This document shows, one piece after another, positions 2,864 to 53,738 of a stretch of 64,000 bases of DNA. Position 1 is the first letter of the stretch. Each line of letters opens with the position of its first letter. The notes beneath the pieces were generated by a model, which was not told the DNA's origin, ran no database searches, and saw nothing but the letters and a program-made list of their open reading frames with translations. The translations under genes were made by a program, and so were the position numbers. The DNA is from an uncultured bacterium (GTDB lineage: Bacteria > UBA8481): the NCBI GenBank assembly GCA_964548165.1, contig CAZJQD010000013.1, positions 12,454 to 76,453 of the forward strand, written 5' to 3'.

Positions 2864-2865
2864 AC

Positions 2866-6816: not shown

Positions 6817-6843
6817 GGAGCCTTCATCGCCTATACTGGCTCC

Positions 6844-10228: not shown

Positions 10229-10248
10229 TCGGCTCAACACACCATGCC

Positions 10249-13126: not shown

Positions 13127-13127
13127 C

Positions 13128-14243: not shown

Positions 14244-14250
14244 ATTTCCC

Positions 14251-16829: not shown

Positions 16830-16833
16830 CCGC

Positions 16834-23393: not shown

Positions 23394-23648
23394 GAGGGTC
23401 TCCTTGGCGAGCTACGACGGTCGGATCGGACGTAGCCGATGGGGCAACGGGACGGGTTTTCGAGATCCTCCCGGGGGATGACGACGTCCTGGCCGAGCCG
23501 GACGGATGGGGCGATGGGCATTGCGACCTCGATGCGATCTCTGACAGCGGCTATCGTAGTGCCCACCGCCTTGCAGTCAAGTTTCTCCGCCCCCCGCGAT
23601 CGCGCGGAGGATGGACTCGCGCGTCCTCGACCGGGATAATGCGAGACC

Positions 23649-25586: not shown

Positions 25587-25644
25587 TCGTCCAGGGGCCC
25601 TGGCGATGCTGGCGGGAAACGGCGCGTTCTGCTAAGTTCGCGCC

Positions 25645-26820: not shown

Positions 26821-26950
26821 CCGCTTCCGGGGTCGGGTTGCCACATGGTCCCATCCGACGATCCTGTTGCGACCGCTCGAAAATAATTACGCTACCAGGA
26901 TTGGACTCCCGGAGTGGGAATCGAGGCCATGTGGCAGCCTGACACCATGA

Positions 26951-28162: not shown

Positions 28163-29238
28163 CAGAAGTAGGCCACCGTTTGGAAGACGACCCCGTCATT
28201 GGGGATGCCGCGCTTGGATGGAGCACCGTTGAAGGTTTCCTGGTTGAACTCGTACAACAATCGAAACTCGAGGGACGAGGCCGGGGTGTAGGTTCCGCCC
28301 AGGGCGATCCGATTCCTCTGCCATGACATCGGCACGTAGAGCGTGCGATTCAGGGGCGGAATGTTGTTGTTGAGCTGATCGTAGGTCGCCTGGACTTCGA
28401 GCTTGTCGCTGAGCCGGTAGGCGCCACCCGCGTTCCAGGCGACGAGGTGAAGCTCTCCCTCGAAACTGCTCCCGTACTCCCCGAAGGCTCGCCACGGTCC
28501 GTAGGTGTAGTCGGCCGCGATCGTGCCGACGCGGCGGTTCTTGTCCTGGAACGTCGGCATGATGGCCAGCGAGTTGAGGTATCGACGGTCCAGGGCGGTG
28601 AGCTGGCCGAACGAGAGCATGCCGTCCAGTACCAGGCTTCCCCAATCGCCGCCCGTTGACCACCCCAGGTTCACGTAGACCTCCCGCAGGTGCGAGGAGA
28701 GGAGACCGGGTGGATTCATCGGCCGCGTGAAGACCGCGGAGTTGGAGAGCGTGGATCCGGTTCCGGACAGGTCGTTCTGGTTGACGATGCCGACCTCCCC
28801 GTTCCAGGTGTTCTGCTCCATGTTGATCTTGAGCCCGTTGTGTACGGCGGAATGAAAAAGAACCTGCGGATAGGAAGAACCCGCGGTCAGGATGGGAGCG
28901 CCGCCCGGCTTCTGAAAGCGTCCCAGGGTGACCGTTCCGTCCCAGGGCAGGCCTTCCGCCCGGATCCAGGCCTCGTTGATGTCGATACGTCCCGGGTTCA
29001 GGGTCAGCACCGATCGCGTGTGCAAGTCGTCGCTCAGCCGCTGGCTCAACGCCAGCACGCCCGTCACCACGCGGAATTGCCCGTGCTGGGTTCCCGGAGT
29101 CAATTGCGTGCCGCCTTCGTAGTCGGTGTAATCCCAGACGAAGGCCCCGCCGATGTCGAGCGCGAGCGCGGGCGGCGTGGACAGGCAGGCCAGGACGGCG
29201 ACGAAAAGCGCGATGCGCGAGCGCAGTGAATCCCCCAT
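28162..29238 (-). CDS. Outer-membrane beta-barrel (porin-like) protein
   Basis: Signal peptide MGDSLRSRIALFVAVLACLSTPPALA, alternating amphipathic strands, C-terminal ...FQTVAYF. Confidence 0.6.
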   Translation of the reverse strand: MGDSLRSRIALFVAVLACLSTPPALALDIGGAFVWDYTDYEGGTQLTPGTQHGQFRVVTGVLALSQRLSDDLHTRSVLTLNPGRIDINEAWIRAEGLPWDGTVTLGRFQKPGGAPILTAGSSYPQVLFHSAVHNGLKINMEQNTWNGEVGIVNQNDLSGTGSTLSNSAVFTRPMNPPGLLSSHLREVYVNLGWSTGGDWGSLVLDGMLSFGQLTALDRRYLNSLAIMPTFQDKNRRVGTIAADYTYGPWRAFGEYGSSFEGELHLVAWNAGGAYRLSDKLEVQATYDQLNNNIPPLNRTLYVPMSWQRNRIALGGTYTPASSLEFRLLYEFNQETFNGAPSKRGIPNDGVVFQTVAYF

Positions 29239-29305
29239 GACGCGGCGATTTTCCCCGTCCAGGCCTGGCCGGGCAAGATCAATTTGCCGGGGGAATACGT
29301 GGGGC

Positions 29306-29920
29306 ATGGGCGCACTTTCGCGACGGAGGTATCATCCCTCCGTGACCACGTTCGTCCGACCAGCTCTCTTCCTGTTCACAGGCATGGTCCTGGTCCTATT
29401 CGCCTACCAGGCGATCGCCATCGAGGACTTCGGGTCACGAGCACTTCCGGAGCCGGCGGATGTCATCATCGTGCTGGGGCCACGTCTCAGCGGCGAGCGA
29501 TTGGACGCGCTCGGCGCCGCGCGCGCTGCAGCCGCTGCCCGCTGCTGGCACGACGGCCGCGCTCCCGTCATCCTGGCTACCGGTGGCACGGTTTCACCGG
29601 GAACGATTCCCGAAGGAGAAGCCCTGCGGAGGGAACTCGTGGGCCTGGGAGTTCAGGGCGAGTCGATCCTCGTCGAGGTGGGATCTCACAGCACGCTCGA
29701 GAACCTCAGGGCGGCGCACGCGATCATGCGAACCCGGGGGTGGCAGCGCGCCCTCGTCGTTTCCAATCGGTTTCATCTTCGCCGCGCCTCCAAGCTGGCG
29801 GAGCGGATCGGCATGGTCGCCACGGTTACCGGAGAGGACCCGCAGGATCCGTCGTGGTCGCTCTATGCCTGGTGGCTGCCGCGGGAGGTTGCGGCCAGCC
29901 TCTATTACGGCATCTGGTAG
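29306..29920 (+). CDS. DUF218 / YdcF (SanA-ElyC) family protein
   Basis: IIVLGPRL...LVEVGSHSTLENLRAAHAIM...ALVVSNRFHLRRA; start ambiguous (ATG 29306, GTG 29342 or ATG 29384). Confidence 0.65.
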   Translation: MGALSRRRYHPSVTTFVRPALFLFTGMVLVLFAYQAIAIEDFGSRALPEPADVIIVLGPRLSGERLDALGAARAAAAARCWHDGRAPVILATGGTVSPGTIPEGEALRRELVGLGVQGESILVEVGSHSTLENLRAAHAIMRTRGWQRALVVSNRFHLRRASKLAERIGMVATVTGEDPQDPSWSLYAWWLPREVAASLYYGIW

Positions 29921-30071
29921 CCGGGGTTAGAAACACGCCCCGTAACACCAAATATTTCAGATGCTGGCGTCTTGGACGTGGGCGCAAACGGCTGGTCAAG
30001 GATTCCAATTTACTCCTGAACGCTACGAACCCTTCATTTTTTAGGCATTTATACCGAAATACCGAGAGATC

Positions 30072-30917
30072 GTGCCCAGTCTCCTCCATCACTATCTCCG
30101 CGCCCGGCGACGGCCGCTCCTTGAGGGGATCGAGACCGTGGCCCTGGCTCTCCTGCTCTCCTGGGTGCTCAGGCTCGTGGCCTTCCAGGCCTTCTACATT
30201 CCTTCGCGTTCCATGGCGGAGACGTTGATGCCCTTCGACCACATTGTCGCCGAGAAGATCACTTACCGCCTGCGGGAGCCTCGGCGCGGCGAGATCGTGA
30301 TCTTCGATTTCAGTCTCTCGGCTTCCGGGGGCCTGCTTCCTGGCGCGGTGCCGGCCGAGGCCACCGGGTCCGACGATGAGGACCGCCACCTGGCGAAACC
30401 CGAGGAGTCGGGTTGGTTCGAGCGCATGGCGGGCTCGCGCGGAGCCCGCGACCGGCGGGAATTCGTCAAGCGCGTCATCGGCGTGGCCGGGGATGAGATC
30501 GATTACCGGGACGGCATCCTCCGCGTGAACGGGATCCGCCAGCGCGAGACCTATCTCGGTTCGGCCGGAGCGGACGGCGCTGACCGCGGCGCCTGGGCTG
30601 CGCGCGTGCCGGGCCGGCGACTCTCCTTCACGGAGAGCGGCGTGAAGATCGACGGGCGCGCGCTCGATGCGGTTCTGCCGCCCGAGATTCCCCCGTCCTC
30701 GATCGTGGACCGATCGCCGGCCAACTTCGTCCGCCTGCGGGGAGGCGGTATCGGGATCCTGCGCATCCATGTGCCTGCCGGCCACCTGTACGTGATGGGC
30801 GACAATCGCCCCGAGAGCGCCGATTCGCGCTGGTTCGGCTTTCTGCCCGTGGCCGCCGTTCATGGTCGCGCTCTCTTCACCTACTGGCCGCTGTCGCGGC
30901 TCTCGTCGCTCTCTTGA
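30072..30917 (+). CDS. lepB: Signal peptidase I
   Basis: IPSRSMAETL (box B), KRVIGVAGDEI (box D), GDNRPESADSRWFG (box E). Confidence 0.85.
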   Translation: MPSLLHHYLRARRRPLLEGIETVALALLLSWVLRLVAFQAFYIPSRSMAETLMPFDHIVAEKITYRLREPRRGEIVIFDFSLSASGGLLPGAVPAEATGSDDEDRHLAKPEESGWFERMAGSRGARDRREFVKRVIGVAGDEIDYRDGILRVNGIRQRETYLGSAGADGADRGAWAARVPGRRLSFTESGVKIDGRALDAVLPPEIPPSSIVDRSPANFVRLRGGGIGILRIHVPAGHLYVMGDNRPESADSRWFGFLPVAAVHGRALFTYWPLSRLSSLS

Positions 30918-32947
30918 GCGTCCGCCCGGGCAGCGCCTCGCCGCCGCCCTCGCCCGCTTCCCCACCGGCCGGCAGCTGGCGCATTCTCCTCCTGCTTGTC
31001 CTGACGCTCGTCGGTCTCCTCGTCGTGGCGCGTGCCCTGTATACCATCCAGGTAACCCAGCACGAGGCCTACCTGGAGAGGGCGATGAACCAGTGGACGA
31101 GCGATCGCAAGATCGAGCGCCAGCGGGGCACCATCTACGATCGCCGGGGCAAGGAACTGGCGATCTCGCTGCGCCGCTGGTCCTTGTCCTTCAATCCGAG
31201 CCTGGCGGAAACTCCAGAGGAACGGCGCGAGATCGCGCGAAAGCTCGCGCCGATCCTTGACCTCAAGACCACGGAAATCATGGAAAAGATGGATCGCGGC
31301 GGTCGCCAGTTCGCCTGGATTGCCCGGCGACTCGAGGAGGGCCCGAAGCGGCGCATCGAGGACCTGCGCATCGACGGCGCCCGCATCAAGGCGCTCCATT
31401 TGTCGCCGGAATACCAGCGCTACTACCCTCACGACAGCACGGCCGCTCACATCCTGGGCTTCGTCGGATCCGACGACATGGGCCTGGAAGGCGTGGAGAG
31501 GGCCCAGAACGCGATCCTGGCCGGGCCTCCGGTCGAAGGCGAGTTCTTCAGCGATAACCTGGGCAATCCGATCCCCGTGGATGGGATCATCCGCTATCCC
31601 CAGTTCGACGGTCGCAACGTGCACCTGACGATCGACCTGGTGATCCAGGCGTCCCTGGAGCAGGCCCTGGAAGCGGCGGTCACGCAATACAACGCCAAGA
31701 GCGCCTCAGGAGTCGTCGTCGACCCGCAGACCGGCGAGGTCCTCGCCCTGGCGAATCTTCCGACGTACGACCTGAACGAGGCGCGCAGAGTCGAGCCCGA
31801 TGTGCGGCGCAACCGCGCCATCACGGACGTCTTCGAGCCGGGATCGACCTTCAAGATCTTCTCGGGCGCGCTGGGCCTGGCTAACGGCCTGGTGACGGCC
31901 AGCGAGATGTTCACATGTCCCGGCTCCTTCGCGCTCCCGGGCCATCCCGTGAAGTGCCACCACGCTCACGGCGCCATCGATTACCGCCGCGCGATCGAGG
32001 TCTCCTGCAACGTCGTGGCGATCACGGTCTGCCAGCGCCTGACCCCCGGCGTGCTCTACGAGGGGCTCCGGGCCTACGGATTCGGCGCCCGAACCGGCAT
32101 CGATCTCCCGGGCGAGGCCGCGGGCGTCGTGAGGGCGCCCGGCGCCTGGTCGGGTCTCTCGCAGGGCATGATCGCGATTGGTCACGAGGTCTCGGTCTCC
32201 ACGATCCAGCTCGCGATGGCGACCGCGGCGATGTCCAACGGCGGAAGGCTCCTGGTGCCCCGCATTGTGCAGAGCATCCGGGACCAGGAGGGAAGGGCGC
32301 TCGCTACCTTCGCGCCCGAGGTACGCGCCCACCCGGTCGACCCTTCGACCTCCCGCCTCATGGGCCAGATCATGAGCGGCTCCGTGCGGCAAGGCACGGG
32401 CCAGCGCGCCACCGTGGCCGGGTTCATGGTCTCGGGCAAGACGGGCACGGCCCAGATCTCGGGCCCCCAGGGCGGCTACATCCGCGGCCGGTACAACGCG
32501 GTCTTCATCGGGTGGACGCCGACGGACGCGCCCGTCCTGGCGATGGCCATTGTCGTCCGCGATCCCGATCCCTCGAAGGGGTATTACGGCGGCGAGGTGG
32601 CGGCGCCTGTCTTCGGCCGCGTGGGCACGGAAGTGATGCGCTACCTGAGGATCGCCGCGGCGGGCGGACGGGACACGCACTTCGCGCGACCCGTGCCCGC
32701 CCCGATGGCGCGTCGCGAGGGCGCCGTGCGCGGTCGTTTCGTCGAGGCCCCCGACTTCATCGGCCTGACGCTGCGCGAGGCCCACGAGCTGGCGGGTCGG
32801 CTACCCATCACCCTTTCGCCTGCGGGCTCGGGCGTGGCCTCCTCGCAGTCGGTTCCGCCGGGAACGCTCGTGCCTCTCGACGCCGCGATCAAGGTCCAGT
32901 TCAGCCCGCCGGGCGAAGCGTCGTCGCTGGCCGATATCGCGCCGTGA
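30914..32947 (+). CDS. Class B penicillin-binding protein (peptidoglycan D,D-transpeptidase, PBP2/FtsI-like) with a C-terminal PASTA-like domain
   Basis: STFK, SCN and KTGTA motifs. Located outside the dcw cluster. Confidence 0.85.
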   Translation: MSVRPGSASPPPSPASPPAGSWRILLLLVLTLVGLLVVARALYTIQVTQHEAYLERAMNQWTSDRKIERQRGTIYDRRGKELAISLRRWSLSFNPSLAETPEERREIARKLAPILDLKTTEIMEKMDRGGRQFAWIARRLEEGPKRRIEDLRIDGARIKALHLSPEYQRYYPHDSTAAHILGFVGSDDMGLEGVERAQNAILAGPPVEGEFFSDNLGNPIPVDGIIRYPQFDGRNVHLTIDLVIQASLEQALEAAVTQYNAKSASGVVVDPQTGEVLALANLPTYDLNEARRVEPDVRRNRAITDVFEPGSTFKIFSGALGLANGLVTASEMFTCPGSFALPGHPVKCHHAHGAIDYRRAIEVSCNVVAITVCQRLTPGVLYEGLRAYGFGARTGIDLPGEAAGVVRAPGAWSGLSQGMIAIGHEVSVSTIQLAMATAAMSNGGRLLVPRIVQSIRDQEGRALATFAPEVRAHPVDPSTSRLMGQIMSGSVRQGTGQRATVAGFMVSGKTGTAQISGPQGGYIRGRYNAVFIGWTPTDAPVLAMAIVVRDPDPSKGYYGGEVAAPVFGRVGTEVMRYLRIAAAGGRDTHFARPVPAPMARREGAVRGRFVEAPDFIGLTLREAHELAGRLPITLSPAGSGVASSQSVPPGTLVPLDAAIKVQFSPPGEASSLADIAP

Positions 32948-32969
32948 CGCGCGGGGGCTCACGGCCGGC

Positions 32970-34367
32970 ATGACGACGCCGCCGAGCGTCGCCTGGCGCG
33001 TGGACGTCGCGCGCAATGGGCGCGTCGCCTTGCGCCGGCCGGACGGTTCCTGGGCGGAGAGTCGCTTTGCTCCGGACATCGACGCCGCGCGCCGGATCGC
33101 CGAGGCCGGGGTCGCCCCGGGTGAACGCGTGCTGGTCCTGGGATGCGGGGCCGGCGAGCTCCCGGCGGCGGCGGCGCGCGCGGCGGCGCCTGGGGGAACG
33201 GTGATTGCCGCGGAACCTCACCCGGAAATTCGCGAGGCTCTCGTCGCGGCGCGGAGCCGAGCGGGGGCCGGCGATCTCCTGGCGGCGTGCTGGGCGTCGC
33301 CGGGCCTCTCCCAGCTGCCGGGCTCGCCGGAAACCCTGTCCGATTTCCTCTCGGCCGTCGCGGCCGCCGGTCCCTATGACCGGGTCGTCGTGCACCCGCA
33401 CCTGGAGCTCCCCGCCGGCTTCGAGATGCTGGAGCAGAGGCTGGCGGATATCGAGGTGCGTCGCCGCTCCGGCTACCGGTTCCAGGCCTTCCTGGCGGCG
33501 AACGTCGCGACGAACCGCGAGCGGTTTCTCGCGGCGCCCGGCGTGCGCGAGCTCGCCGGCCTCCTGGCGGGGGAGGACGTCGTCATCGCCGGCGGCGGAC
33601 CGAGCCTGTCGCCGTTGGCGGAAGCGATCGGAACGGGGGCCCACTGGATCGCCGTCGGGACCGCGCTGGCGCCCTTGGCCGCCGCAGGGATTGCGCCGCA
33701 TCTCGTCGTCATCACCGATCCCCAGCCGCGCGTGGCCGCCTCGCTGACGGCGCTCGACGAGCGCCGGCGCCCGCCGCTCGTCTGCTTCCCCACGACGTCG
33801 GCCGTGGCCGTGGCGGCGGCGCCGCGCCTGATCGCGGCCTTCCCCGAGGGAGACGGCGATCGCCAGCTGGCGCCCTTACGCGAGGAGATCGGCGAGCTCC
33901 CGGCCGGGGGCACGGTCGTCACTTCCGCGATCGGCCTGGCCTGGATCCTCGGCGCCGCGCGCATATTCCTCGCGGGCGTCGACCTCGTCGAGACGGCGAC
34001 GCGCTCGCACGCCGACGCGTCGCCCCATGCCGCGGAACGACTCGCAGGCCTCATGCGCTTCGCGTCCCTGGAGGAACGAGCCCGGGGGCGGGAGGCGCGC
34101 CTGGGGGAGTCGGGGGACCGGATCGAGGTGGCGACGGCCGAGGGCGGTCGCGCCCACTCGCGGAGGAACCTGGCGCTCTATGCGCGAGCCATCGCCGACC
34201 TCGCTCGCCGCCGTCCCGACGTCGCCGTGATCCAGTTGAATCCCGGCGCGATCGCGATGCCCGGGGTATCGCTCGATCCGGCCGCGCGCCCCGCGGTCTC
34301 GGTGCGCCAGTTCCTCGTTCCCACGGGAGCGCGAACCCGTGAGAATGGCGGCCTGCTATGCGCGTAG
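32970..34367 (+). CDS. Motility accessory factor (Maf)-like protein, MptE-like / DUF115 domain
   Basis: VVIAGGGPSLSPLAEAIGTGAHWIAVGTALAPLAAAGIAPHLVVITDPQ. Confidence 0.6.
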   Translation: MTTPPSVAWRVDVARNGRVALRRPDGSWAESRFAPDIDAARRIAEAGVAPGERVLVLGCGAGELPAAAARAAAPGGTVIAAEPHPEIREALVAARSRAGAGDLLAACWASPGLSQLPGSPETLSDFLSAVAAAGPYDRVVVHPHLELPAGFEMLEQRLADIEVRRRSGYRFQAFLAANVATNRERFLAAPGVRELAGLLAGEDVVIAGGGPSLSPLAEAIGTGAHWIAVGTALAPLAAAGIAPHLVVITDPQPRVAASLTALDERRRPPLVCFPTTSAVAVAAAPRLIAAFPEGDGDRQLAPLREEIGELPAGGTVVTSAIGLAWILGAARIFLAGVDLVETATRSHADASPHAAERLAGLMRFASLEERARGREARLGESGDRIEVATAEGGRAHSRRNLALYARAIADLARRRPDVAVIQLNPGAIAMPGVSLDPAARPAVSVRQFLVPTGARTRENGGLLCA

Positions 34368-35920
34368 TTGTCTCGAAGAGCGGAGCGCCGACCCTGGCCC
34401 TCGGGGATCGGTATCTTCATTCCGCGTATGATCCCGTGCGCGAGGCGCGACGCGAGGTCGAGGCCCTCGTGCCCGACAACCCGTCGCTAGTCGTCATTCT
34501 CGGCATGGGGCTTGCGTACGCCGTCGACGCCGCGCTGGAGCTCATGCCCGGCGCGCAGATTCTCGTCATCGAGTCGAGCGAGGAGATCCACCGGCTGGCG
34601 GCAGAGACGCGAGCGCTCCCGGACGACCCCCGGGTCACCTGGATCATCGGGAAGCATGCCGACGCCAACTTCGAGGCCCTGACGTACACGATCGACGCCG
34701 TGGCCGCCGTCGGGACGCGCTACCTGACGCGGCTGGCCGCGCTGAATGACGATCCCGATGCGGCCGCCTACTACGCGCGGGTGGTCGACACGATCGGCCG
34801 GATCGCGGCCATGCACGTGGAGGGATTGCGATCGATGGCCCAATGGGGGCCCCTCTGGTGGGAAAACTCCGTGCGTAACGCGCGCGAGTGGGCGACGCGC
34901 CCCGATGTCGGCGGCTGGTTCGGACCCGCCCTGGGGAAGGGCCAGGCCGTCTTTGTCTTCGCCGCCGGTCCCACGCTTTCCGATCACCTCGATCGATTCG
35001 TCGGACAGGAAGGCGGCATCCGGTTCGTCGTCGACACCGCCTACGAGACGGTGCGCCGGGCGGGGGTGCGCGTCGACGTCGTCTTTGCCGTCGACGCCCA
35101 GGCCCAGACGCTGGCGCATTTTGCGCATGCGCGCCCCGCCTGCCTTGTCGCCGCGCCCGTCGTCCCGCCGTCTCTCTGGGGCATGGCCGGGGATGCGCTT
35201 CTCACGTCCCTCGACGGGCCTCACTTCGCCTGGTGGGATCGCGCTCTCGGTCGCCCCGTCGCCCGCCTGAAGTCCGGCGGATCCGTGACCACCTTCGCCT
35301 TCGACCTGGCGCGCCGCATGAATCCCGACGCCGTGGTCCTCGTCGGCGCCGATTTTGCGCATCGCGGGTCCCGCCGTCACGTCGGGGGAACCGCCTACGA
35401 GACGGGGGACGTGGCCCGCGTCGCGCGGTTCCTCCCGCTGGAGCGCCTGGCCCGGCGCGAGGCGTTTCGGCACGCGGGTCACGCGACGGAGCCGGTGCTG
35501 GCGCAATACGCGCAGTGGATGCTCTGGGAGATCCACGCCACGCGTTGTCCCGTCTACCGGATGAGCGACTTCGGCCTGCTTGCCGGCGTCCCCGTGGCCG
35601 CGCCCTCGAACCTCGATCCGTGGCTGGCCGCGCCCGCGCCGTCGCTCAGGGTTCCCCGGTCGAGGCTCGGCGACATCAAGCCTCTCTGGTCCGCGCTCGC
35701 GGACGAGCGTCGCGCACTCGGAAAGGCCCTGGAGGGATCGGACGAGCACCTGGCGGCCCTGTCGGGATTTTTCGATCTCCTCGTCCGGCCCTGGGCGGTC
35801 GCCTCCATGCGCGAAGGCTTCAGCGGCGAGGCCCGCGATGCCCTGCGCGGCGCGCTCGCGACAGCGGCCTCCGTGCTTGACGACGTCCTCGACCGACGAG
35901 ACGGTCCCGAACGCGCTTGA
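34358..35920 (+). CDS. Motility accessory factor (Maf)-like protein, MptE-like / DUF115 domain
   Basis: N-terminus SKSGAPTLALGDRYLHSAYDPVREA, core VFVFAAGPTLSDHLDRFVGQEGGIRFVVDTAYETVRRAGVRVDVVFAVDAQ. Confidence 0.7.
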   Translation: MRVVVSKSGAPTLALGDRYLHSAYDPVREARREVEALVPDNPSLVVILGMGLAYAVDAALELMPGAQILVIESSEEIHRLAAETRALPDDPRVTWIIGKHADANFEALTYTIDAVAAVGTRYLTRLAALNDDPDAAAYYARVVDTIGRIAAMHVEGLRSMAQWGPLWWENSVRNAREWATRPDVGGWFGPALGKGQAVFVFAAGPTLSDHLDRFVGQEGGIRFVVDTAYETVRRAGVRVDVVFAVDAQAQTLAHFAHARPACLVAAPVVPPSLWGMAGDALLTSLDGPHFAWWDRALGRPVARLKSGGSVTTFAFDLARRMNPDAVVLVGADFAHRGSRRHVGGTAYETGDVARVARFLPLERLARREAFRHAGHATEPVLAQYAQWMLWEIHATRCPVYRMSDFGLLAGVPVAAPSNLDPWLAAPAPSLRVPRSRLGDIKPLWSALADERRALGKALEGSDEHLAALSGFFDLLVRPWAVASMREGFSGEARDALRGALATAASVLDDVLDRRDGPERA

Positions 35921-36054
35921 ACGCGGCGCTGTTGGCCCTGCTCATGGGCGCGCTGTCGTTTCTTGCCTTATGATCGCTGACTGCCTATGGTCATCCCTGA
36001 TGCATCCAGGTTCGCGCATGTCACTGCCAGGCGCGTCGCTCAACCGAGGAATCC

Positions 36055-36585
36055 ATGCAGTGTCCTGACTGCAAGGTGATCTTGTCTTGTCACAAGATTG
36101 GCAGCCACGCGCTTCAATCCTGCGGGGCATGCCGTGGGGTTTGGATCGACCATGATGAGGCATTGTCCTTGTCTCGGTCCATCCGGAGGGGGGCTTCGTA
36201 TGCCCGCCTTGAGCGGCAGCGTGTCGTCTCTGGTATTCGCCGCTGCGGGCGTTGTGCTGACGCCCCGATGTCGGTGGTGCGCTATCGCAATCATGAAGTC
36301 GATATATGCTCATCCTGCAAGGGCATATGGATCGACGCGGACGAGATCAAACCCATTATCCATCGCTTCTCGGCGCAGCCTGATGACAAGGGCAAAAGAG
36401 CGGATGTCGCCGCCTCGTCCGCGCAAGCGCCTTCCGCATGGCAAACGGTGGGTGATGGCACCCTGTGGTTTCCCTATGAACTTCTCGATGGTGTCGGAGA
36501 GATCGTGTACTACGGGGCGGATGCCGCTGCGGATATTGGCGGTGCGATTTTGGAGATCATCGTCGGCGTGGTTTCGTCATCGTGA
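36055..36585 (+). CDS. Tandem zinc-ribbon protein (two CPxC...CxxCxGxWID motifs, zf-TFIIB-like bacterial zinc ribbon)
   Basis: CPDCK...CGACRGVWIDHDE and CGRC...CSSCKGIWIDADE. Confidence 0.55.
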   Translation: MQCPDCKVILSCHKIGSHALQSCGACRGVWIDHDEALSLSRSIRRGASYARLERQRVVSGIRRCGRCADAPMSVVRYRNHEVDICSSCKGIWIDADEIKPIIHRFSAQPDDKGKRADVAASSAQAPSAWQTVGDGTLWFPYELLDGVGEIVYYGADAAADIGGAILEIIVGVVSSS

Positions 36586-36619
36586 TGCTTGTTGCAGCGA
36601 TGTCGCCGGGGACTCGCGC

Positions 36620-36967
36620 GTGAAGTGGTACTGCCCGAATTGCGTCAACGAAGACGCGTCCGGGTATACGCATTGCTTGGATTGCGGCACGGAATTGACG
36701 ACGGAGAAGCCCGTCGCTCCGCCCCCGCAAGAGCCCGAAACCGCCCTTGCCGGCGTGTTTTACATGCCGCTTGATGCCGACATCGCGAAAGGCATTCTGG
36801 ACGCCGAAGACATTCCTTGCATCTTGTGCGACGACAACACGATCGCGGCCAACAACTTGCTGGGCATGGCGCTCGGGGGAATTAAGCTCCTGGTCCACCG
36901 GGACAACCTGGATTTCGCCGTGCAGCTTCTCCGTGAACGTCATCCTGCGAGTTTTCGAGACCAGTAG
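36620..36967 (+). CDS. Small zinc-ribbon protein with a DUF2007-like C-terminal domain
   Basis: VKWYCPNCVNEDASGYTHCLDCGTEL followed by DADIAKGILDAEDIPCILCDD...KLLVHRDNLDFAVQLL. GTG start. Confidence 0.45.
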   Translation: MKWYCPNCVNEDASGYTHCLDCGTELTTEKPVAPPPQEPETALAGVFYMPLDADIAKGILDAEDIPCILCDDNTIAANNLLGMALGGIKLLVHRDNLDFAVQLLRERHPASFRDQ

Positions 36968-36968
36968 G

Positions 36969-39900
36969 GTGACCATTCATCCGGCCAACGAGCGGCATTT
37001 CGTGTCGCGCCCGCAATTCCGCGCCGCGCTGGCCGCCGCGGCCGGAACCTGGTCGCTCGAATCTTCCCGCCATGGCGCACCCGTACCCGTTCGCGTCGCC
37101 GACGGGCGGTGGCTCCTGTCGCGCTATGACCCCGAGAAGGAGACGGCGCGGTGGCTGGCGACCCAGAATATCGCTCCCGACGAGCTTCCCGTCTTCATCG
37201 GGTTCAATCCATACATCCCGGGCGCCCTGGTGAACCGGCCGATCGTCATGGTGGAGAAGGACGCGGGGCTCGTCGCCGCCTGCCTCGCGGGGATGGACCT
37301 GGGAGTCGCGCTCGAAGGCGTCTCGATCGTCCTCGATGAGAGCGGCTACCAGATGATGTCGGCCGTCCGCAATGCCAACGACGTCTTCCGCCATCGCCGC
37401 CTCCGGCTCCTGCCTCTGCCCACGGCGGAGGACACGGCGTGGGTGAAGTCGGTGCTCGAACATGGCGTGAAGATCCAGCGCGAGCTCAGCCTCAACGCCA
37501 TCTCCTATTCCTGCCAGCTCCCCAAGTGGATCTCGACCGTGCGCGCCAACCTGGCGACGATGATGAACGGGCCGGACGGGCGCTCGGTGTACGGGAGCCT
37601 CAACGGGGCGACTGCCATCCTGGTGGGGGCCGGCCCCTCGCTCGAGAAGAACATCGATCAACTCGCCGCCTGCCGCGGCCGCGCGCTCATCATCGCCGTG
37701 GACACGGCCTTGAGGCGCCTGGACCGCGCCGGGATCATTCCCGACGTCACGGTCGCCGTCGACGCGAACGACGCGAACGCGCGGGACGTCGACGGGCTGG
37801 GGGAGCGCCTGCTGGAAGAGAGCATCCTGGCGGCCGATCCGATCGTGGCGCCGGCGGTCGTCAGGGCCTTTCGCGGCCCGCGCACCTTCTTCCGGTCGAT
37901 CAACTTCACGTTCGACCTGGAGGGCAACGCGGTCCCGATGGTCGAGCCGCTGGATTTTCTTCTTCATGAGATAGCCGGCCGGAACGTGATCGCGGCCTGG
38001 CAGAGCGGGGGGTCGGTCTCCACGAACGCCTTCAACCTCTGCCACCTGCTCGGCGTCTCCCGCGTGGTCCTGGTGGGGCAGGATCTTGCGTTCACGGAGG
38101 GGCGGGCGCATTCGTCCGGCGTCGGTCACGAGGACGAGCACGCCGGCCGCATGCTCGGCCGGTTCCGATCGCGCGAGATGCTGGTGCGCATGGCCACGCG
38201 GGATGGGGACTTTCTCGTTCCGGGCTGGAATGGCGGCATGGTACGGACCAACGAGGTCCTCAGGGAGTATCTCAACTGGTTCGAGATGACGATGGAGCAT
38301 GGATTCGGGCGCGTCTTCGCCGAGGTCATCGACGCGTCTGAGGGAGGCGCTTCCAAGAAGGGCATGACTCGGTCCACGCTCGCGGACGCCCTGAAGCGGC
38401 TGCCGGAAACGGGCGATCCGGCGGTGGCCCTGAGGCGGGCCCTGGCCGGCGCCGAGCCGGCCGGGGCTCCGGGCTGGGAGCGGCGCGTGGTGGCGTTCGT
38501 CGAGAAACTGCGGCGGCTGGCCGGCGCATCGCCCGAGGCCGTGACGCGCGAGCTGCCCCTGGCCCCTTGGCTTGTCCTGCCCGCGTGGATCGGGAGCTTC
38601 GACATGGATCCCGAGGATCGGCGGGCCGTGCAGAGCGGGGGCATCTCCAGTGCCGTGGACTTTCTCCTGAAGGTCTTCTCCGGGATGGCGGCAGAGTTCG
38701 AAGCGTCCGCCAGGTTCGCGTCATCCGCGGGCGGTCCCGCACCGGCGTCGCCGCGCTCAGCGACCACCGCGGCGGCCACTGCGCCGCGCGCTCCCTCGCC
38801 ATTGCCGCCCGAGCCCGCCACGCCCGCGGGCCTTCACGTGACCGCGGCTGCCGACGGCTCGCCCATCCTCGCGCTGGCGACGGGAACCGGAGTTCGGCAT
38901 TTGGACGCAAGCGATCGACCCGCGGCGACGGCGCAGCAGCGAGTCGACCAGCTCGTGGCGGGCGGCCTCGATGGCGCGGGCCCGGAGGGGGCGCGCCCCG
39001 AGATGCTCGTGATCGTGGGCGTCGGCCTGGGGTATGAGCTGGAGGCCGCGGTCGCTCGGCGCGAGCTGACCGCGATCGTCCTGGTGGAGCCCGACGCGGG
39101 TGCGATCCGTCGTGCCCGGAAGATCAGGAACCTGGAGCACGCGCTCGCGGATCCGCGCGTGACGACCTTCATCGCTGAGAAGCCGCGGGCGATCTTCGAG
39201 CAACTGGCCGCGCGATTCGATCATGGCATGGAGTCGGGCCGGCACCTCGTGGTTCTGCCGCGCGCGCGGCGCATCGTTCACCCCTCGTGCGGCTTGGATC
39301 CCTCGGCCCTTGCCGCCGTCGAGGAACAGCTCGACGCGCTCCTCGTGGTCTCCGAGAGGAATCGCCGGACGCTGGCGCGTTTCGCCGAGCCCTGGCGGCG
39401 CAACATCCTCGCCAACATCCCCGCGATCCTGGCGGGAGGACGCCTGGCGGACCTGGAGGGCGCGGCGAAAGGGGTCCCCGCCGTCCTCCTCGCCGCCGGC
39501 CCCTCGCTCGACGGAGTCCTGGGCGAGCTCCGGCTGGAACTGGAGAAGCGAGGGGCCGCGCGACCGCTCGTCGTCGTCGTGGACACGGCGCTCAGAGCGG
39601 TGGCGAGGGCGGGGATCACGCCCGATCTCGTCGTGGCCGTCGACGCGTCCGACGAGAACCTGGGAGACTTCGAAGGCGTCTCGATCGACCAGGATCGGAC
39701 GGCGCTCGTCTACGTGCCGGTGGTGCATCCCGCGATCCCCGCGTTGTTCGCGCGCCGTTTCGCGACCAGCTATGGGCATCCGGTGCAGGTCTGGCTGGAG
39801 GAAGCGACGGGCCGCGCCTTCGGATCGCTCTCGATCTCGGGGAGCGTGGCCACGCTGGCTTATGATCTCCTGCGCTACCTGGGCGCCAAGCCCATCATCC

Positions 39901-40496
39901 TCGCGGGGCTCGACCTTGCCGTCGGAGTGACCGGCCACACGCGGGGGGCCTTGACCGGGCAAGGCGAGGGGAGATTCGCCACGACCGAGACGCGTACCTG
40001 GAAGCATGCGCGCGGCGCGACGGTGCGTCGTCCGGGCTGGGGCGGCGGGAACGCCCGCACGACCGAGCAGATGCTCCGGTGGATCGAGTGGTTCGAGGGA
40101 GAACTGCTGCGCCGGCCCTGGCCGACGATCAACGCGACCGGCGGCGGGGCGAGGCTGGAGGGCGCGCAGGAGATGGGGCTCGTGGAGGCCCTGAAGCGGC
40201 ACCCCGCGAAGCCCTGGTCGCTTCCGGCGCCGCGGCCGTTCACGGAGCGCGCCCAGGAGCGGGTGCGTCGGTCGCTTGCGGCGATTCGCGACGGGGTGCC
40301 CGACGCCGAGCCGCTCCTGTCCATCCTCCTGCGCTGGGACCTCTGCGTCTCAGGCGCGGTCCCGGCCCAGGCGGAATCCTCCCGGGTCCGGGGCTCAGCC
40401 GAGCAGACCTTGTGCGATGACCTCCGCCGGCAGGTCGCGGGGGTCCTGGCCGGGGAGGCCCGGCGCGAGTCGCGCCGGGGCGAAGCCCGGAAATAA
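36969..40496 (+). CDS. Giant tandem Maf-like protein (two MptE-like / DUF115 modules fused, about 1175 aa)
   Basis: Two copies each of the Maf N-terminal motif (LLSRYDPEKETARW; RHLDASDRPAATAQQRV) and of the GxGPSL...DTALR...GI.PD..VAVDA. core (ILVGAGPSL...IAVDTALRRLDRAGIIPDVTVAVDAN; VLLAAGPSL...VVVDTALRAVARAGITPDLVVAVDAS). Confidence 0.7.
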   Translation: MTIHPANERHFVSRPQFRAALAAAAGTWSLESSRHGAPVPVRVADGRWLLSRYDPEKETARWLATQNIAPDELPVFIGFNPYIPGALVNRPIVMVEKDAGLVAACLAGMDLGVALEGVSIVLDESGYQMMSAVRNANDVFRHRRLRLLPLPTAEDTAWVKSVLEHGVKIQRELSLNAISYSCQLPKWISTVRANLATMMNGPDGRSVYGSLNGATAILVGAGPSLEKNIDQLAACRGRALIIAVDTALRRLDRAGIIPDVTVAVDANDANARDVDGLGERLLEESILAADPIVAPAVVRAFRGPRTFFRSINFTFDLEGNAVPMVEPLDFLLHEIAGRNVIAAWQSGGSVSTNAFNLCHLLGVSRVVLVGQDLAFTEGRAHSSGVGHEDEHAGRMLGRFRSREMLVRMATRDGDFLVPGWNGGMVRTNEVLREYLNWFEMTMEHGFGRVFAEVIDASEGGASKKGMTRSTLADALKRLPETGDPAVALRRALAGAEPAGAPGWERRVVAFVEKLRRLAGASPEAVTRELPLAPWLVLPAWIGSFDMDPEDRRAVQSGGISSAVDFLLKVFSGMAAEFEASARFASSAGGPAPASPRSATTAAATAPRAPSPLPPEPATPAGLHVTAAADGSPILALATGTGVRHLDASDRPAATAQQRVDQLVAGGLDGAGPEGARPEMLVIVGVGLGYELEAAVARRELTAIVLVEPDAGAIRRARKIRNLEHALADPRVTTFIAEKPRAIFEQLAARFDHGMESGRHLVVLPRARRIVHPSCGLDPSALAAVEEQLDALLVVSERNRRTLARFAEPWRRNILANIPAILAGGRLADLEGAAKGVPAVLLAAGPSLDGVLGELRLELEKRGAARPLVVVVDTALRAVARAGITPDLVVAVDASDENLGDFEGVSIDQDRTALVYVPVVHPAIPALFARRFATSYGHPVQVWLEEATGRAFGSLSISGSVATLAYDLLRYLGAKPIILAGLDLAVGVTGHTRGALTGQGEGRFATTETRTWKHARGATVRRPGWGGGNARTTEQMLRWIEWFEGELLRRPWPTINATGGGARLEGAQEMGLVEALKRHPAKPWSLPAPRPFTERAQERVRRSLAAIRDGVPDAEPLLSILLRWDLCVSGAVPAQAESSRVRGSAEQTLCDDLRRQVAGVLAGEARRESRRGEARK

Positions 40497-40580
40497 TCCC
40501 ACCAACCCGTCGCATTTCAAACCCCGGTCGTACTATAGTGAATGTGGTGGACGTCGCCAGGGGGCGGCAGGGGGGGACGC

Positions 40581-41243
40581 ATGCCGATACATGACGCCAA
40601 TTTCAAGGAACCGACGGTGACCGAGCAGGTCATGATCGTCACGCTCCGGGAAGTGATCGAGGGGCTGATGTATCACAACGAGAATGTCCGCATGAGCGAC
40701 GCGTTGAACGCCGAGGCCAAGCAGCATAGCCGCTACGTCTCGTTGAAGGACGCCGTGGTCTACTCCATCGCCACCGGCCGCGAGATCCTGCGAACCGCCT
40801 TTCTCGTGGTCTCGCACAGCCACATCATCTACATGACGCCGAAAGCGGCGGTGCGCGTTGCCGTCCACCCGGGCCTCGAGGAGGAGAACGGCAAGGGCGA
40901 AGCGGGCGCCGATGTCGGTTCGGACGATCTGCTCCCGGATACGCCCGAGATTCACTGGCACTCCGTGGCGCCGGCCGGGGTGCCGATGAGCCCCCAGGCG
41001 GGTCGGGGAGCGTCGGCCTCGGCCGTCGCGGCCGCCACGGTGGGAGCAACCAGCACGGCAGGCGCCACCAGGAACATGGACGCGTCCGCCAAGGTCTCCG
41101 CCGAGCCTTCGCCGATGGTGCACGCGCCGAGCGATCAGCACCTGGCATCCCGCCAGGCCATGCTCAAGACGCTCGCCGCGATCCGCGCTCACGCGGAGGA
41201 TCACAAGGCCGTGATGGGCGCGGCCGGTCGGGACCTGGACTGA
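40581..41243 (+). CDS. Hypothetical protein: a globular N-terminal domain of about 95 aa followed by an Ala/Ser-rich low-complexity tail
   Basis: Coding-like composition (VMIVTLREVIEGLMYHNENVRMSDALNAEAKQHSRYVSLKDAVVYSIATG...); the opposite-strand ORF is Arg-rich shadow. Confidence 0.5.
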   Translation: MPIHDANFKEPTVTEQVMIVTLREVIEGLMYHNENVRMSDALNAEAKQHSRYVSLKDAVVYSIATGREILRTAFLVVSHSHIIYMTPKAAVRVAVHPGLEEENGKGEAGADVGSDDLLPDTPEIHWHSVAPAGVPMSPQAGRGASASAVAAATVGATSTAGATRNMDASAKVSAEPSPMVHAPSDQHLASRQAMLKTLAAIRAHAEDHKAVMGAAGRDLD

Positions 41244-41251
41244 GGGGATAG

Positions 41252-42670
41252 TTGCCGGTGGCCACCGCGACCCCTGCTCCACCGCTTGCCGCAGAAGATT
41301 CGGTGGCGATGGCCGGCGAAGAGCGCCGCGCGATCCTGAGCCGGCTCCTCGTAAGGCTCCTCAAGCTCGTGTCGCAGGACGAACGAGGGCAGACGATCGC
41401 GCGGTCCGCTCACCCCGACGAGGTCGCCAGCGAGCTGGCCGCGATGGGCGAGCGCGCGCTCGATAATCTCCCGCTTCCTGAGGGCTTTTTTCTGACCAAG
41501 GCCTGCCGCCAGCAGTTGCTCGTCATGCTCCATAACGAGATCCTCGGCTTTGGACCGATCCAGGATCTCCTGGACGACAATAACATCGAGGAGATCATGG
41601 TGAACGGCCCGGACAGGGTCTTCGTGGAGCGAAGGGGAAAGATTCAACCTGTTACTGTCCACTTTCGCGATCGCGACCACCTGATGAACCTGATCCAGCG
41701 CATCGTCTGGAGATTGGGGCGCCGGATCGACGAGGCCTCGCCGCTCGTGGACGCCCGTTTGCCCGACGGCTCGCGCGTCCACGCCGCGATCGCGCCCGTT
41801 GCGCTTCGCGGCCCCTACCTCACGATTCGCAAGTTCGCGGCCACGGCGATGACGTTGAATGGCCTGGTGGAGCGCCATTGCCTGAACGCGGCCATGGCCG
41901 AGTTTCTCCGCAATGCCGTGGAGGCCCGGCTCAACATCATCGTCTCCGGTGGTACGAGCTCGGGAAAGACGACGTTCCTGAACGTGCTGGCCTCGCTGAC
42001 GCCGCCGCAAGAGCGGTTGGTCACGATCGAGGACGCGGCGGAACTGCAGATGGGCACGCACGAGAACGTCTGCGCGTTCGAGGCTCGGCCGGCCAACATC
42101 GAGGGGAGAGGGGCCATCACGATCCGTGACCTCATCCGTAACGCCCTCAGGATGCGGCCGGATCGGTTGATCGTGGGGGAAGTGCGCGGCGCCGAGTCGC
42201 TCGACATGCTCCAGGCCATGAACACGGGGCACGAGGGCTCCTTCACGACCGTGCACGCCAACTCGGCCCAGGACCTCTTTTCGCGCCTGGAGACCATGGT
42301 CTGCATGGGCGCCACCGAGCTCCCGGTCACGGCGATCCGCGACATCATCGCCTCCGCCGTGCACCTCGTGGTGCAGGTCGCCCGGCGGCCGGACGGTCAG
42401 CGCCAGGTCGTGGAGATCGCCGAGGTCTGCGGCGTCGGCGAGGACGGGCGCATCGCGGTGAATCCCATCTGGACGTGGGACGTGGTCGGTTACGGCGCGG
42501 ACGGGACGGTGGAGAGCGCCTTCCGGTGGCACGGGGTGCCGCTCAGGACGCGCGCGCGCTTCGAGGCGCATGGCCGTCGCTGGCTTCCGCCGACAGCGGC
42601 GGCGGCTCGCGCCACCCAGGACGGCGAGGTCGTCAACAGCTTCCTGGATCGCCTCCAGAAGGACCTGTGA
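41252..42670 (+). CDS. CpaF/TadA-family secretion ATPase (type II/IV secretion NTPase)
   Basis: Walker A IIVSGGTSSGKTTFLN, Asp box, MNTGHEGSFTTVHANSA, and CpaF-like N-terminal region. Confidence 0.85.
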   Translation: MPVATATPAPPLAAEDSVAMAGEERRAILSRLLVRLLKLVSQDERGQTIARSAHPDEVASELAAMGERALDNLPLPEGFFLTKACRQQLLVMLHNEILGFGPIQDLLDDNNIEEIMVNGPDRVFVERRGKIQPVTVHFRDRDHLMNLIQRIVWRLGRRIDEASPLVDARLPDGSRVHAAIAPVALRGPYLTIRKFAATAMTLNGLVERHCLNAAMAEFLRNAVEARLNIIVSGGTSSGKTTFLNVLASLTPPQERLVTIEDAAELQMGTHENVCAFEARPANIEGRGAITIRDLIRNALRMRPDRLIVGEVRGAESLDMLQAMNTGHEGSFTTVHANSAQDLFSRLETMVCMGATELPVTAIRDIIASAVHLVVQVARRPDGQRQVVEIAEVCGVGEDGRIAVNPIWTWDVVGYGADGTVESAFRWHGVPLRTRARFEAHGRRWLPPTAAAARATQDGEVVNSFLDRLQKDL

Positions 42671-42676
42671 GCGGCC

Positions 42677-43360
42677 TCAGGCCGCGGCTGATCCGGCTGA
42701 TCTTTCCTTGTAGACCGTCCAGGCAATGGGCAGGAGCGAGAGGAAAACGATGGCGAGCGCGATCTTGTCGATGTGAAGTTCGAGCGGGAAGCCGAGCGTC
42801 GTGCGGGTCCATCCACCGAGAAAATAGCCTGCCAGGACCATGCTCCAGACCCAGGTGAAGGCGCCCAGGATGTTGAAGGTCATGAAGACGGGAAATCGCA
42901 TCTTGACGATCCCCGCGACGATGGGCGCAAAGGTTCGGACGAACGGAACCCACCGTCCGGCTACGATGAAGAAGGTGCCCCAGCGCCCGTAGAATTCTTC
43001 GGTCTTCCTCAGCCAGGCCTTCTTGAAGAGCGGGATACCGAGGATCGATCGGTCGGGCCACGAGTAAAGCGCGCGTCCGAAGAATGTGCCGATCCAGTAG
43101 CCGACCTGGTCGCCCATGATTCCGCAGGCAGGCACGATGACGAGGAGTTGCCAGAGTGGCAGCAGCGCGTGTCCGTCAGGTCCGGGCGTGGCCGCGAAGA
43201 TGCCGCAGAGCACGAGGAGCGAATCGCCCGGGAGCAGTGCGAAGAAACCCGTCTCGGCGAAGATGATGAGACAGATGACAGGGATGCCTCCGGTCTGGAT
43301 GAGCCAGGTAATTCCCTCGGGCGAGAAAAGCCAGACGAACTGGTGGATGAGGTCAATCAT
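42677..43360 (-). CDS. DedA-family (VTT / SNARE-associated domain) membrane protein
   Basis: LPGDSLLVLCGIFAA...GRWVPFVRTFAPIVAGIVKMRF. Confidence 0.85.
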   Translation of the reverse strand: MIDLIHQFVWLFSPEGITWLIQTGGIPVICLIIFAETGFFALLPGDSLLVLCGIFAATPGPDGHALLPLWQLLVIVPACGIMGDQVGYWIGTFFGRALYSWPDRSILGIPLFKKAWLRKTEEFYGRWGTFFIVAGRWVPFVRTFAPIVAGIVKMRFPVFMTFNILGAFTWVWSMVLAGYFLGGWTRTTLGFPLELHIDKIALAIVFLSLLPIAWTVYKERSAGSAAA

Positions 43361-43531
43361 GGTGCCAAGGAGAATATCGGCGCGCGGACAGACTGCAAGC
43401 CAACGGTGTCAGGCTAGCAGTTTCGCGGCTTCATCGGGGCAATCCGAACTCATCTAGTTGCAGGGTGGTGTCATCGAGTGGCACGCTGTCTGGCGGAACT
43501 TCGAGACTGCTAGCCTGACCCTCTTTGTCGG

Positions 43532-47341: not shown

Positions 47342-47345
47342 GGGG

Positions 47346-48362: not shown

Positions 48363-48407
48363 GCAAGCGAAGGGACGGCAACGATCCCGTCCTCGGGCTT
48401 GTGTACT

Positions 48408-49340: not shown

Positions 49341-49429
49341 GGCGCGAGTGTAGCAGAGGCCATGGCCGGTTAGAACCCGGGCCTGTGACAGCCGGTTGAC
49401 ATTATCGGCGGGCGATCTAGGCTCTGGGC

Positions 49430-50080: not shown

Positions 50081-50216
50081 GAGTGCGAGCGGAAACGCAC
50101 AGGATGGTGGCTTCCGGCCGTGAATCGGTTTGCATCGGTCGGACGGATGGAGGATATTGCCAGCGTCGTCGTCAGGCGGTAGTCTGGCAGGCTTCAATTT
50201 TCTGGAGGAGGTTCTT

Positions 50217-50507
<291 letters not shown>

Positions 50508-50514
50508 TCCATCG

Positions 50515-50823: not shown

Positions 50824-50909
50824 GCGGCCCGGCGGGACAGGATACTGTCCTGCCGGGCAGTGCGCGGTCGAACCGGGCAGGGTGAGGGGACCGTCTTGAG
50901 GAATCAGCT

Positions 50910-53722: not shown

Positions 53723-53738
53723 AAATGAGGTGTTGGTC

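Follow-up and report, generated by a model that had tools for sequence, protein, structure and literature searches.

The question considered here is what is done by a group of genes for proteins of the motility accessory factor (Maf) family that lies behind the genes for a signal peptidase and a penicillin-binding protein (PBP), outside any flagellar locus. The genes are carried by a 64,000-nucleotide stretch of contig CAZJQD010000013.1 (assembly GCA_964548165.1) from an uncultured bacterium, hereafter the window, in which three open reading frames (ORFs), MafA, MafB and MafC, contain four Maf modules. The modules are numbered as paralogs Maf1 to Maf4, of which the last two are joined in MafC. 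An initial annotation had described these ORFs as an island with one double-length member and had suggested a complex or unusual glycosylation system that targets flagellin or another protein. Comparison with related contigs shows that the four Mafs are an ancient quartet, held in fixed order and locked behind lepB and ftsI, a point that the initial annotation had missed. On balance, the four modules would be active cytoplasmic protein O-glycosyltransferases that use CMP-activated ulosonic acids and function jointly, with flagellin as the probable substrate. The Maf enzyme family itself is known; what is new is the clade-wide quartet fixed behind lepB-ftsI and the local fusion of Maf3 to Maf4.

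Assignment of all four modules to the Maf/MptE-like family, as originally proposed, was borne out by sequence, profile and predicted fold alike. The three ORFs are present as they had been called, and all exceeded the Pfam gathering score of 34.6 for PF01973 (MptE-like/Maf_flag10), with 72.1 bits for MafA (E = 6e-20), 57.2 bits for MafB (E = 2e-15) and 201.8 bits, over two stretches, for MafC (E = 9e-60). A local hidden Markov model (HMM) built from Maf cores placed these cores at residues 171-351 of MafA, 161-347 of MafB and both 183-385 and 804-993 of MafC. When compared with a canonical 647-aa Maf by hhalign, the four modules gave probabilities of 99.9-100 over almost the whole template, with alignments starting between template positions 17 and 67. 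MafA (probability 99.9) covered positions 40-498, MafB (probability 100) covered 46-637, and the C-terminal half of MafC (module 4; probability 100) could be aligned to position 542. The four modules of the window are 27-33% identical to one another. Given that the GC content at third codon positions (GC3) is 0.85-0.88 in the three Maf ORFs, like that of neighbouring genes in a window of 64-74% GC, all three are supported as coding.

Two signatures had been attributed to each ORF. The core motif GxGPSL was indeed found four times across the three ORFs, but the N-terminal signature (SKSG.PTL...LHS.YDP..EA) occurs as written in MafB alone; MafA and the two halves of MafC have degenerate versions, and the proline of YDP is its only invariant position. 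The N-terminal motifs are conserved within each orthogroup and different between paralogs. The Pfam model of the Maf N-terminal domain, PF20157, gave a faint match below the cut-off (E = 0.013). A Maf-type N-terminal Rossmann-like domain is present in the modules as judged by hhalign and by the beta-alpha-beta N-domain of AlphaFold2 (AF2) models, which were made of module 3 and MafA only.

In sequence searches of the PDB, the sole relative of MafC was the Magnetospirillum Maf 5MU5; none was returned for MafB, and only weak methyltransferase-like matches were returned for MafA. The family profile matched 5MU5 with E = 1.3e-23 and, next in rank, the archaeal MptE kinase; segment 117-174 of the 5MU5 N-domain also matches this profile. 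The model of module 3 (predicted local distance difference test score (pLDDT) of 85.1; predicted template modelling score of 0.84) displayed the full three-domain Maf architecture, including C-terminal helices at residues 484-586, and its top Foldseek match was 5MU5 (E = 6.8e-21; 677 aligned columns). The same structure was the top match for the MafA model (pLDDT 82.7; E = 1.4e-15; 510 aligned columns), which ends after residue 435. The C-terminal helical bundle seen in module 3 is aligned in MafB and partly aligned in module 4. No transmembrane segments were predicted in the Maf modules. Among PDB entries, 5MU5, from Magnetospirillum magneticum AMB-1, gave the best match and the only strong one. 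Its N-domain is a degenerate Rossmann fold and its core is of the GT-A-like MptE/Maf_flag10 type, both of which recur in the proteins described here, and its helical C-domain has a full counterpart in module 3. By contrast, identity is only ∼15-16%, the modules have 465-600 residues compared with 666, Maf1 is without the terminal helical bundle, and the window Mafs sit behind ftsI, outside any flagellar locus.

Residues 324 and 415 of the M. magneticum Maf are reported to be critical for activity (preprint 10.1101/2020.06.03.131540). The preprint names the pair Asp324 and Glu415, whereas chain 5MU5_A reads Glu324 and Asp415. The positions aligned to 324 and 415 are Asp/Asp in all four orthogroups in the six genomes compared, and the G-P-[ST] and [ST]-V motifs are retained in the same set. 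Retention of the acidic positions in every ortholog is what would be expected of an active transferase; family membership and probable catalytic competence of all four modules are well supported by the alignments and models. The idea that the MafA N-domain is a distinct, active methyltransferase was not supported, because its GxGxG...EP pattern is family-wide. Identity with archaeal MptE (6-hydroxymethyl-7,8-dihydropterin pyrophosphokinase) was likewise rejected. Here, only the core matches 8sd5/8sbu (profile E = 8e-10 over positions 215-287; fold E = 1e-4 over 189-300 aligned columns), and the modules carry Maf-specific flanking domains, whereas archaeal MptE is a stand-alone kinase domain of ∼215-240 aa without the N- and C-domains of Maf.

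The block formed by signal peptidase I, an FtsI-type PBP and four Maf paralogs was recovered on nine independent contigs, seven with the complete block (the window, L001, L084/L085, L086, L087/L088, L091 and L095) and two with part of it (L093 and L096). Four separate Maf genes follow lepB and the PBP gene in L084/L085, L086, L087/L088, L091 and L095, and in these contigs, as in L001, lepB lies directly 5' of the PBP gene. The genes of the block share one strand and are joined by short gaps or overlaps, with the exception of a 400-nt gap in L091 at a Maf1 call that is short, and the flanks differ in every contig. Orthology by BLAST is 1:1, with MafA corresponding to gene 1, MafB to gene 2 and the two halves of MafC to genes 3 and 4. 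Orthologs are 38-61% identical across genomes, compared with 25-33% between paralogs; MafA orthologs in four other genomes are 39-61% identical, and MafB orthologs are 52-59% identical. A search with the adjacent PBP returned a clade whose PBPs are 49-88% identical to it, in which one homolog (56% identity) is named Candidatus Hydrogenedentota. Given this single named homolog, the sole taxonomic basis available, the block-bearing clade is probably Hydrogenedentota-related rather than Firmicutes-like.

In the window, the genes from lepB through a secretion ATPase lie on a single strand, with gaps or overlaps of ≤45 nt apart from one insert described below. The signal peptidase ORF, which scored 119.8 against the NCBIfam model sigpep_I_bact (cut-off 47), shares 4 nt with the start of the PBP gene, and MafA and MafB overlap by 10 nt. 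The Maf genes may be co-transcribed with ftsI. A promoter and terminator scan of positions 28500-43500 gave counts equal to the shuffled expectation, the sole notable site being a terminator-like hairpin just 3' of the ATPase gene, and scanning the window for Rfam families and tRNAs gave no matches. A link between Maf and FtsI is not described for this enzyme family; literature searches on DUF115, Hydrogenedentes flagella and spirochaete Maf returned no mention of a PBP-Maf link. The DUF6812 protein and TadA-like ATPase encoded immediately 3' of the block were rejected as partners of the Mafs, because Maf genes were absent from all 80 reference-genome loci of the ATPase and because the pair, although present in L001, is replaced in L084, L086, L087 and L091. 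It is an orphan, with no other Tad or pilus genes nearby, and the same adjacency recurs in a Leptolinea metagenome-assembled genome (L008, 9817-11245).

The third ORF proved to be a genuine two-module fusion, found in two independent assemblies. MafC residues 3-573 align with separate orthologs of 566-571 aa (46-52% identity), and residues 620-1130 align with separate orthologs of 531-566 aa (38-47% identity). A HMMER search of 1.84 billion representatives yielded 9174 relatives, including split orthologs of each half and a single full-length fused ortholog, P0002. This close homolog (65% identity) is encoded on L001 with the same fusion and gene order; a search of reference genomes with MafC gave no relative. 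An alignment of the full-length fusion (A2) was left unused, as MAFFT had placed C-half orthologs on the N-half. Where genes 3 and 4 are unfused, they overlap by 4 nt (1 nt in L091). The linker is of low complexity, is not conserved with respect to P0002 and stands in place of the first ∼30 residues of unfused paralog 4, and the module 3 model has pLDDT values of <50 over its last residues (594-600). On these alignments, paralogs 3 and 4 are joined end to end in the 1175-aa protein, a lineage-specific fusion and a recent local event. Such a fusion is mechanistically ordinary, requiring loss of an overlapping stop/start: the 4-nt overlap of maf3 and maf4 was lost in the window lineage and its nearest relative, to give one protein with a disordered linker. 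Given the fusion, it is proposed that Maf3 and Maf4 act together in a 1:1 ratio. Two MptE-like cores per polypeptide are also found in P0003 (1719 aa, with TPR) and P0012 (1239 aa, adjoining sugar-modification genes). However, their identity to MafC is only 25-28%, and they represent independent fusions in other lineages and contexts, not orthologs.

Description of the genes as an island was correct in that four modules are present in three genes, but they are not contiguous, since an insert of ∼1 kb (35921-36968) parts MafB from MafC. The insert has a GC content of about 0.6 and contains two small zinc-ribbon genes; GC3 of the gene at 36055-36585 is 0.65, compared with 0.85-0.88 for its neighbours. 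Neither gene has a match in L001, where maf2 and maf3-4 overlap by 4 nt, and inspection of repeats around the insert revealed no target-site duplication and no terminal repeats. The insert is lineage-specific and lies outside the conserved system; the insertion that separated maf2 from maf3-4 came later than the fusion.

The PBP of the block, the only PBP in the window, has a hydrophobic anchor at residues 18-42, and its best NCBIfam match is spoVD_pbp, below the cut-off. The dcw (division and cell wall) cluster of the window is without a PBP gene, the mraW ORF (9305-10228) being followed directly by a Mur-ligase ORF (10197-12104). By contrast, P0092, the nearest PBP outside the clade (40% identity), lies in a canonical mraZ-mraW-x-PBP-murE cluster. 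Given the canonical position of P0092 and the absence of a PBP gene from the window cluster, the comparison indicates that the FtsI-type PBP moved in this clade from the dcw cluster to lepB and the Maf quartet. The Ser/Pro-rich cytoplasmic tail of the window PBP was considered as a glycosylation target and rejected, because the tails of its relatives have only 3-10 residues. Elsewhere in the dcw cluster, at the place expected for murF (12104-13280), the translation has no obvious GxxGKT P-loop and no family could be assigned.

The wider distribution of such genes was assessed in a metagenome scan with the gene-3 alignment, which returned 80 Maf loci that were annotated locally. Flagellin genes were found in the flanks of 19 of the 80, one locus (L095) was the further full block already mentioned, and six had a class B PBP immediately 5' of a single Maf (L111, L114, its duplicate L116, L135, L156 and L171). 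Pfam confirmed this pair in L171 and L156. In L156, it is adjoined by the spirochaete flagellar sheath gene flaA, and the Maf of this contig has relatives under the names Brevinematia, Brevinematales and Thermospira aquatica. The pairs of this Brevinematia (Spirochaetota) type resemble the window block in that a class B PBP lies directly 5' on the same strand, with an overlap or a gap of <20 nt; they differ in having one Maf rather than four, a PBP without PASTA domains and no lepB. Their PBPs share 30-35% identity with the window PBP and belong to a different subgroup, with that of GC-rich L111 distinct again. Separate clades were obtained for the four orthogroups and for the PBP-linked single Mafs in a neighbour-joining tree that carries no support values. 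Outgroup Mafs (about 26-36% identity) occur in classical contexts, either beside fliO (L092) or in the order flagellin-flaG-fliD-x-maf-DUF8042-fliS-pseB-like (L094). A small DUF8042 protein is encoded beside Maf in L094 (5278-5694, between maf and fliS) and in L082 (59-325, 5' of P0012), and its position in L094 suggests that it may be the specificity factor GlfM.

The observations described above can be accommodated by the following model. Maf1 to Maf4, each predicted to combine the Maf N-terminal Rossmann-like domain with a GT-A-like MptE core, would O-glycosylate a protein ahead of its export, with Ser/Thr as the acceptor residues and a nonulosonic or octulosonic acid, activated by CMP, as the donor. 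The four would be non-redundant, serving different sites or sugars or forming a hetero-oligomer. Given that Maf enzymes are able to use CMP-Kdo (the CMP derivative of 3-deoxy-D-manno-octulosonate; preprint 10.1101/2020.06.03.131540), a dedicated nonulosonic-acid pathway may be dispensable. Flagellin would be the most likely acceptor, because all characterized Mafs act on flagellin, the contig carries flgE and fliK, and outgroup Mafs lie in flagellar loci; the metagenomic Maf loci with flagellin genes also support this target.

Known Maf systems offer partial precedents. Campylobacter jejuni (Maf1-7/PseD/PseE) and Shewanella oneidensis (Maf-1/Maf-2 with GlfM) also have several paralogs per genome, presumably for different sugars or sites, and provide precedent for domain fusion and fission in Maf systems. 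In S. oneidensis, Maf-2 needs GlfM and Maf-1 needs its TPR. However, theirs is a variable family, whereas the quartet has a fixed order and 1:1 orthologs throughout its clade and is encoded outside a flagellar glycosylation island. Unlike the S. oneidensis proteins, the quartet has neither a TPR nor a GlfM-like gene, and its fusion is between two Mafs rather than between a Maf and a binding domain.

Several observations weigh against flagellin glycosylation by four active enzymes. No flagellin, FliS, FliD, DUF8042 (GlfM-like) or PseB-like gene was found in the window by tblastn, nor in flanks of up to 10 kb around the seven complete blocks. No TPR domain was matched by Pfam in the window Maf modules, and no donor pathway was seen on the one contig covered. 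PseD (NF050051), the only Maf-type NCBIfam model to be matched, has a cut-off of 670 bits that was reached by none of the proteins (MafC, 89.6; MafB, 12.1; MafA, no match). MafA has a methyltransferase-like N-domain and an MptE-like core but, by both hhalign and the AF2 model, is without the terminal helical bundle. The invariable partners of the quartet, lepB and ftsI, have no known link to flagellin glycosylation, and a second, independent PBP-Maf pair exists in the Brevinematia-type contigs. The weight to be placed on the neighbourhood is itself limited. ArgJ, which is functionally unrelated, is likewise conserved next to the block, so conservation of neighbourhood is no proof of shared function, and synteny inside one clade may partly reflect shared ancestry rather than provide independent evidence.

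The model was weighed against three other explanations. The original proposal, read as a flagellar glycosylation island with a DegT-family aminotransferase supplying a nonulosonic-acid pathway and hook genes marking a flagellar regulon, now appears very improbable and is largely refuted by the synteny comparison. The aminotransferase gene is present and has PseC as its best NCBIfam match, and flgE and fliK share the contig with the Mafs; however, the DegT score of 274.7 is below the PseC cut-off of 423.5, and the gene, judged unlinked, lies on the opposite strand, 9.5 kb from the Mafs and beyond DUF4914, ArgJ and two unknown genes. It is also absent from the 10-kb flanks of the relatives. The hook genes are likewise where they had been placed, but the whole dcw cluster stands between them and the Mafs. 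Beyond the lack of the flagellin, FliS and FliD genes already noted, no nonulosonic-acid synthase or CMP-sugar synthetase family and no other pse, leg or neu gene was found among the predicted ORFs of the window scanned against Pfam. In a second explanation, only some modules are catalysts, and the remainder, chiefly the truncated Maf1, serve as adaptors or specificity subunits that take over the flagellin binding of GlfM or TPR in a hetero-oligomer. The absence of a DUF8042 gene from the window and of TPR from the modules would fit this arrangement, as would the incomplete C-terminus and unusually methyltransferase-like N-domain of Maf1, N-terminal motifs that distinguish the paralogs and are kept within orthogroups, and the physical association suggested by the Maf3-Maf4 fusion. 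Nevertheless, all tested catalytic and nucleotide-site positions are kept in the four orthogroups in every genome, which is unexpected for pure adaptors, and this explanation is considered rather unlikely.

A role in the cell envelope was also considered. The quartet could work with FtsI and LepB in envelope biogenesis or division, either by glycosylating a non-flagellin protein or an envelope precursor or, by analogy to SteA, as a nucleotide-sugar-binding divisome regulator. Such a role is consistent with the lepB-ftsI-maf order kept in the seven complete contigs despite reshuffled flanks, with the displacement of FtsI from the dcw cluster, and with PBPs of a different group directly 5' of the single Mafs in L114/L116, L135, L156, L171 and L111. 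Furthermore, the next fold match after Maf and archaeal MptE/HPPK is the cell-division regulator SteA (9hmy; E = 4.5e-4), the pocket of which resembles the nucleotide sites of TPPK and CstII (PMC12977500). SteA (Rv1697), a cytoplasm-facing nucleotide binder tied to septal peptidoglycan enzymes, resembles the Maf core only remotely in fold, however. Sequence and fold are far nearer to Maf (E = 1e-21 compared with 4.5e-4; TM-scores to SteA of 0.16-0.27), and the swivelling-domain N-terminus, C-terminal transmembrane helix and adjacent steB of SteA (PMC12977500) were not seen in the Maf modules or locus. Conserved catalytic acidic residues fit an active transferase, the Maf proteins are soluble with no predicted membrane anchor, and cytoplasmic tails of ∼3-10 aa would make the PBPs of the relatives poor acceptors. 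Given also that both PBP-linked lineages are flagellated, with flaA adjoining the pair in L156, and that ArgJ is conserved beside the block too, an envelope or division role seems unlikely, although it is the main rival to the preferred model. In its more specific form, a Maf-like subfamily would have been recruited independently to the division or peptidoglycan machinery in at least two lineages (Hydrogenedentota-like and Brevinematia), where it would be co-expressed with an FtsI-type transpeptidase and act on a non-flagellin component of the envelope or divisome, possibly via CMP-Kdo; this, too, is regarded as doubtful. Glycosylation of flagellin by four active Mafs is retained as the preferred model.

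Table 1. Positions of genes and modules in the window, and of PBP-Maf pairs on metagenomic contigs.
Feature	Position (nt)	Strand	Match or detail
flgE-like fragment, fliK, small flagellar gene, 1122-aa flgE	2-6753		
nifS/nifU-like genes	6766-8414		
dcw cluster: mraZ, mraW, Mur ligases, mraY, murD, ftsW, murG, murC, murB, ftsQ	8694-22097		
DegT-family sugar aminotransferase	22296-23393	-	PF01041 at 1.4e-123
DUF4914, ArgJ, two unknown minus-strand genes, DUF218	23640-29920		
Signal peptidase I, class B PBP with PASTA, then Mafs	30072-40496	+	
LepB-type signal peptidase I (S26), at the head of the conserved block	30072-30917	+	Pfam Peptidase_S26, 1.3e-39
Class B PBP (FtsI/SpoVD type; PBP_dimer + transpeptidase + PASTA), N-terminal membrane anchor	30914-32947	+	Pfam
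MafA = Maf paralog 1, 465 aa	32970-34367	+	MptE-like core nt 33480-34022
MafB = Maf paralog 2, 520 aa	34358-35920	+	MptE-like core nt 34838-35398
Small protein with two TFIIB-type zinc ribbons	36055-36585	+	PF13453 at 1.5e-16
Small zinc-ribbon + DUF2007-like protein	36620-36967	+	Weak Pfam matches DUF2007, DZR
MafC, whole ORF, 1175 aa from GTG	36969-40496	+	
MafC N-half = Maf paralog 3, aa 1-575	36969-38693	+	MptE-like core nt 37515-38123
Ala/Pro/Ser-rich linker between paralogs 3 and 4, about aa 576-640	38694-38888	+	
MafC C-half = Maf paralog 4, aa 641-1175	38889-40496	+	MptE-like core nt 39378-39947
DUF6812 protein + TadA/CpaF-like secretion ATPase	40542-42670	+	Pfam, NCBIfam
DUF6812, TadA-like ATPase, transporters, kinase/FHA pair, microcompartment locus	40542 onward		
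PBP-Maf pair, L156	705-5224		
PBP-Maf pair, L171	7915-11242		
PBP-Maf pair, L114	1870-5158		
PBP-Maf pair, L111	1-3052		
PBP-Maf pair, L135	1-1993		

Other features of the window were recorded in the course of the analysis. The FlgE protein encoded at 3385-6753 is very large (1122 aa), with a long insertion between its N-terminal rod/D1 region and its D2/C-terminal regions, and a further C-terminal fragment resembling FlgE is encoded at the start of the window (2-1006), ahead of fliK. The DUF4914 protein (23640-25586), encoded next to ArgJ, is highly conserved (1026 bits to Pfam), and DUF4914 and the Maf block are no more than 10 kb apart in the window (upstream) as well as in L086 (19756-21636, downstream after a PfkB kinase). 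Further downstream, a Ser/Thr protein kinase is encoded beside an FHA-GAF protein on the minus strand (46316-48407), a position kept in L001. A microcompartment locus at 49421-54308 comprises PTAC (a phosphate propanoyltransferase), BMC-H, EutN/CcmL, an aldehyde dehydrogenase, an RnfC/Nuo51-like flavoprotein and a tandem-BMC shell protein.

The Maf reaction is the least understood step of the sialylation-like glycosylation of flagellin, with one structure solved, and recognition of the acceptor has been tied only recently to TPR or GlfM. A quartet that is predicted to be catalytically intact throughout a clade, that lacks both TPR and GlfM and that has two of its members fused would offer a test case for the action of Mafs as hetero-oligomers and for the possibility that paralogs supply each other's acceptor binding. 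The strict coupling to lepB-ftsI, the relocation of FtsI from the dcw cluster and the independent PBP-Maf pair of Brevinematia were unexpected. If functional, the coupling to FtsI would link protein glycosylation, or a regulator with the Maf fold, to septal peptidoglycan synthesis, and recruitment to division, if true, would constitute a new function for the Maf/DUF115 fold. Even if the linkage to FtsI reflects no more than an operon of convenience, the correction to annotation holds and is useful, in that none of these proteins is a pterin kinase and the one of 1175 aa joins Maf3 to Maf4.

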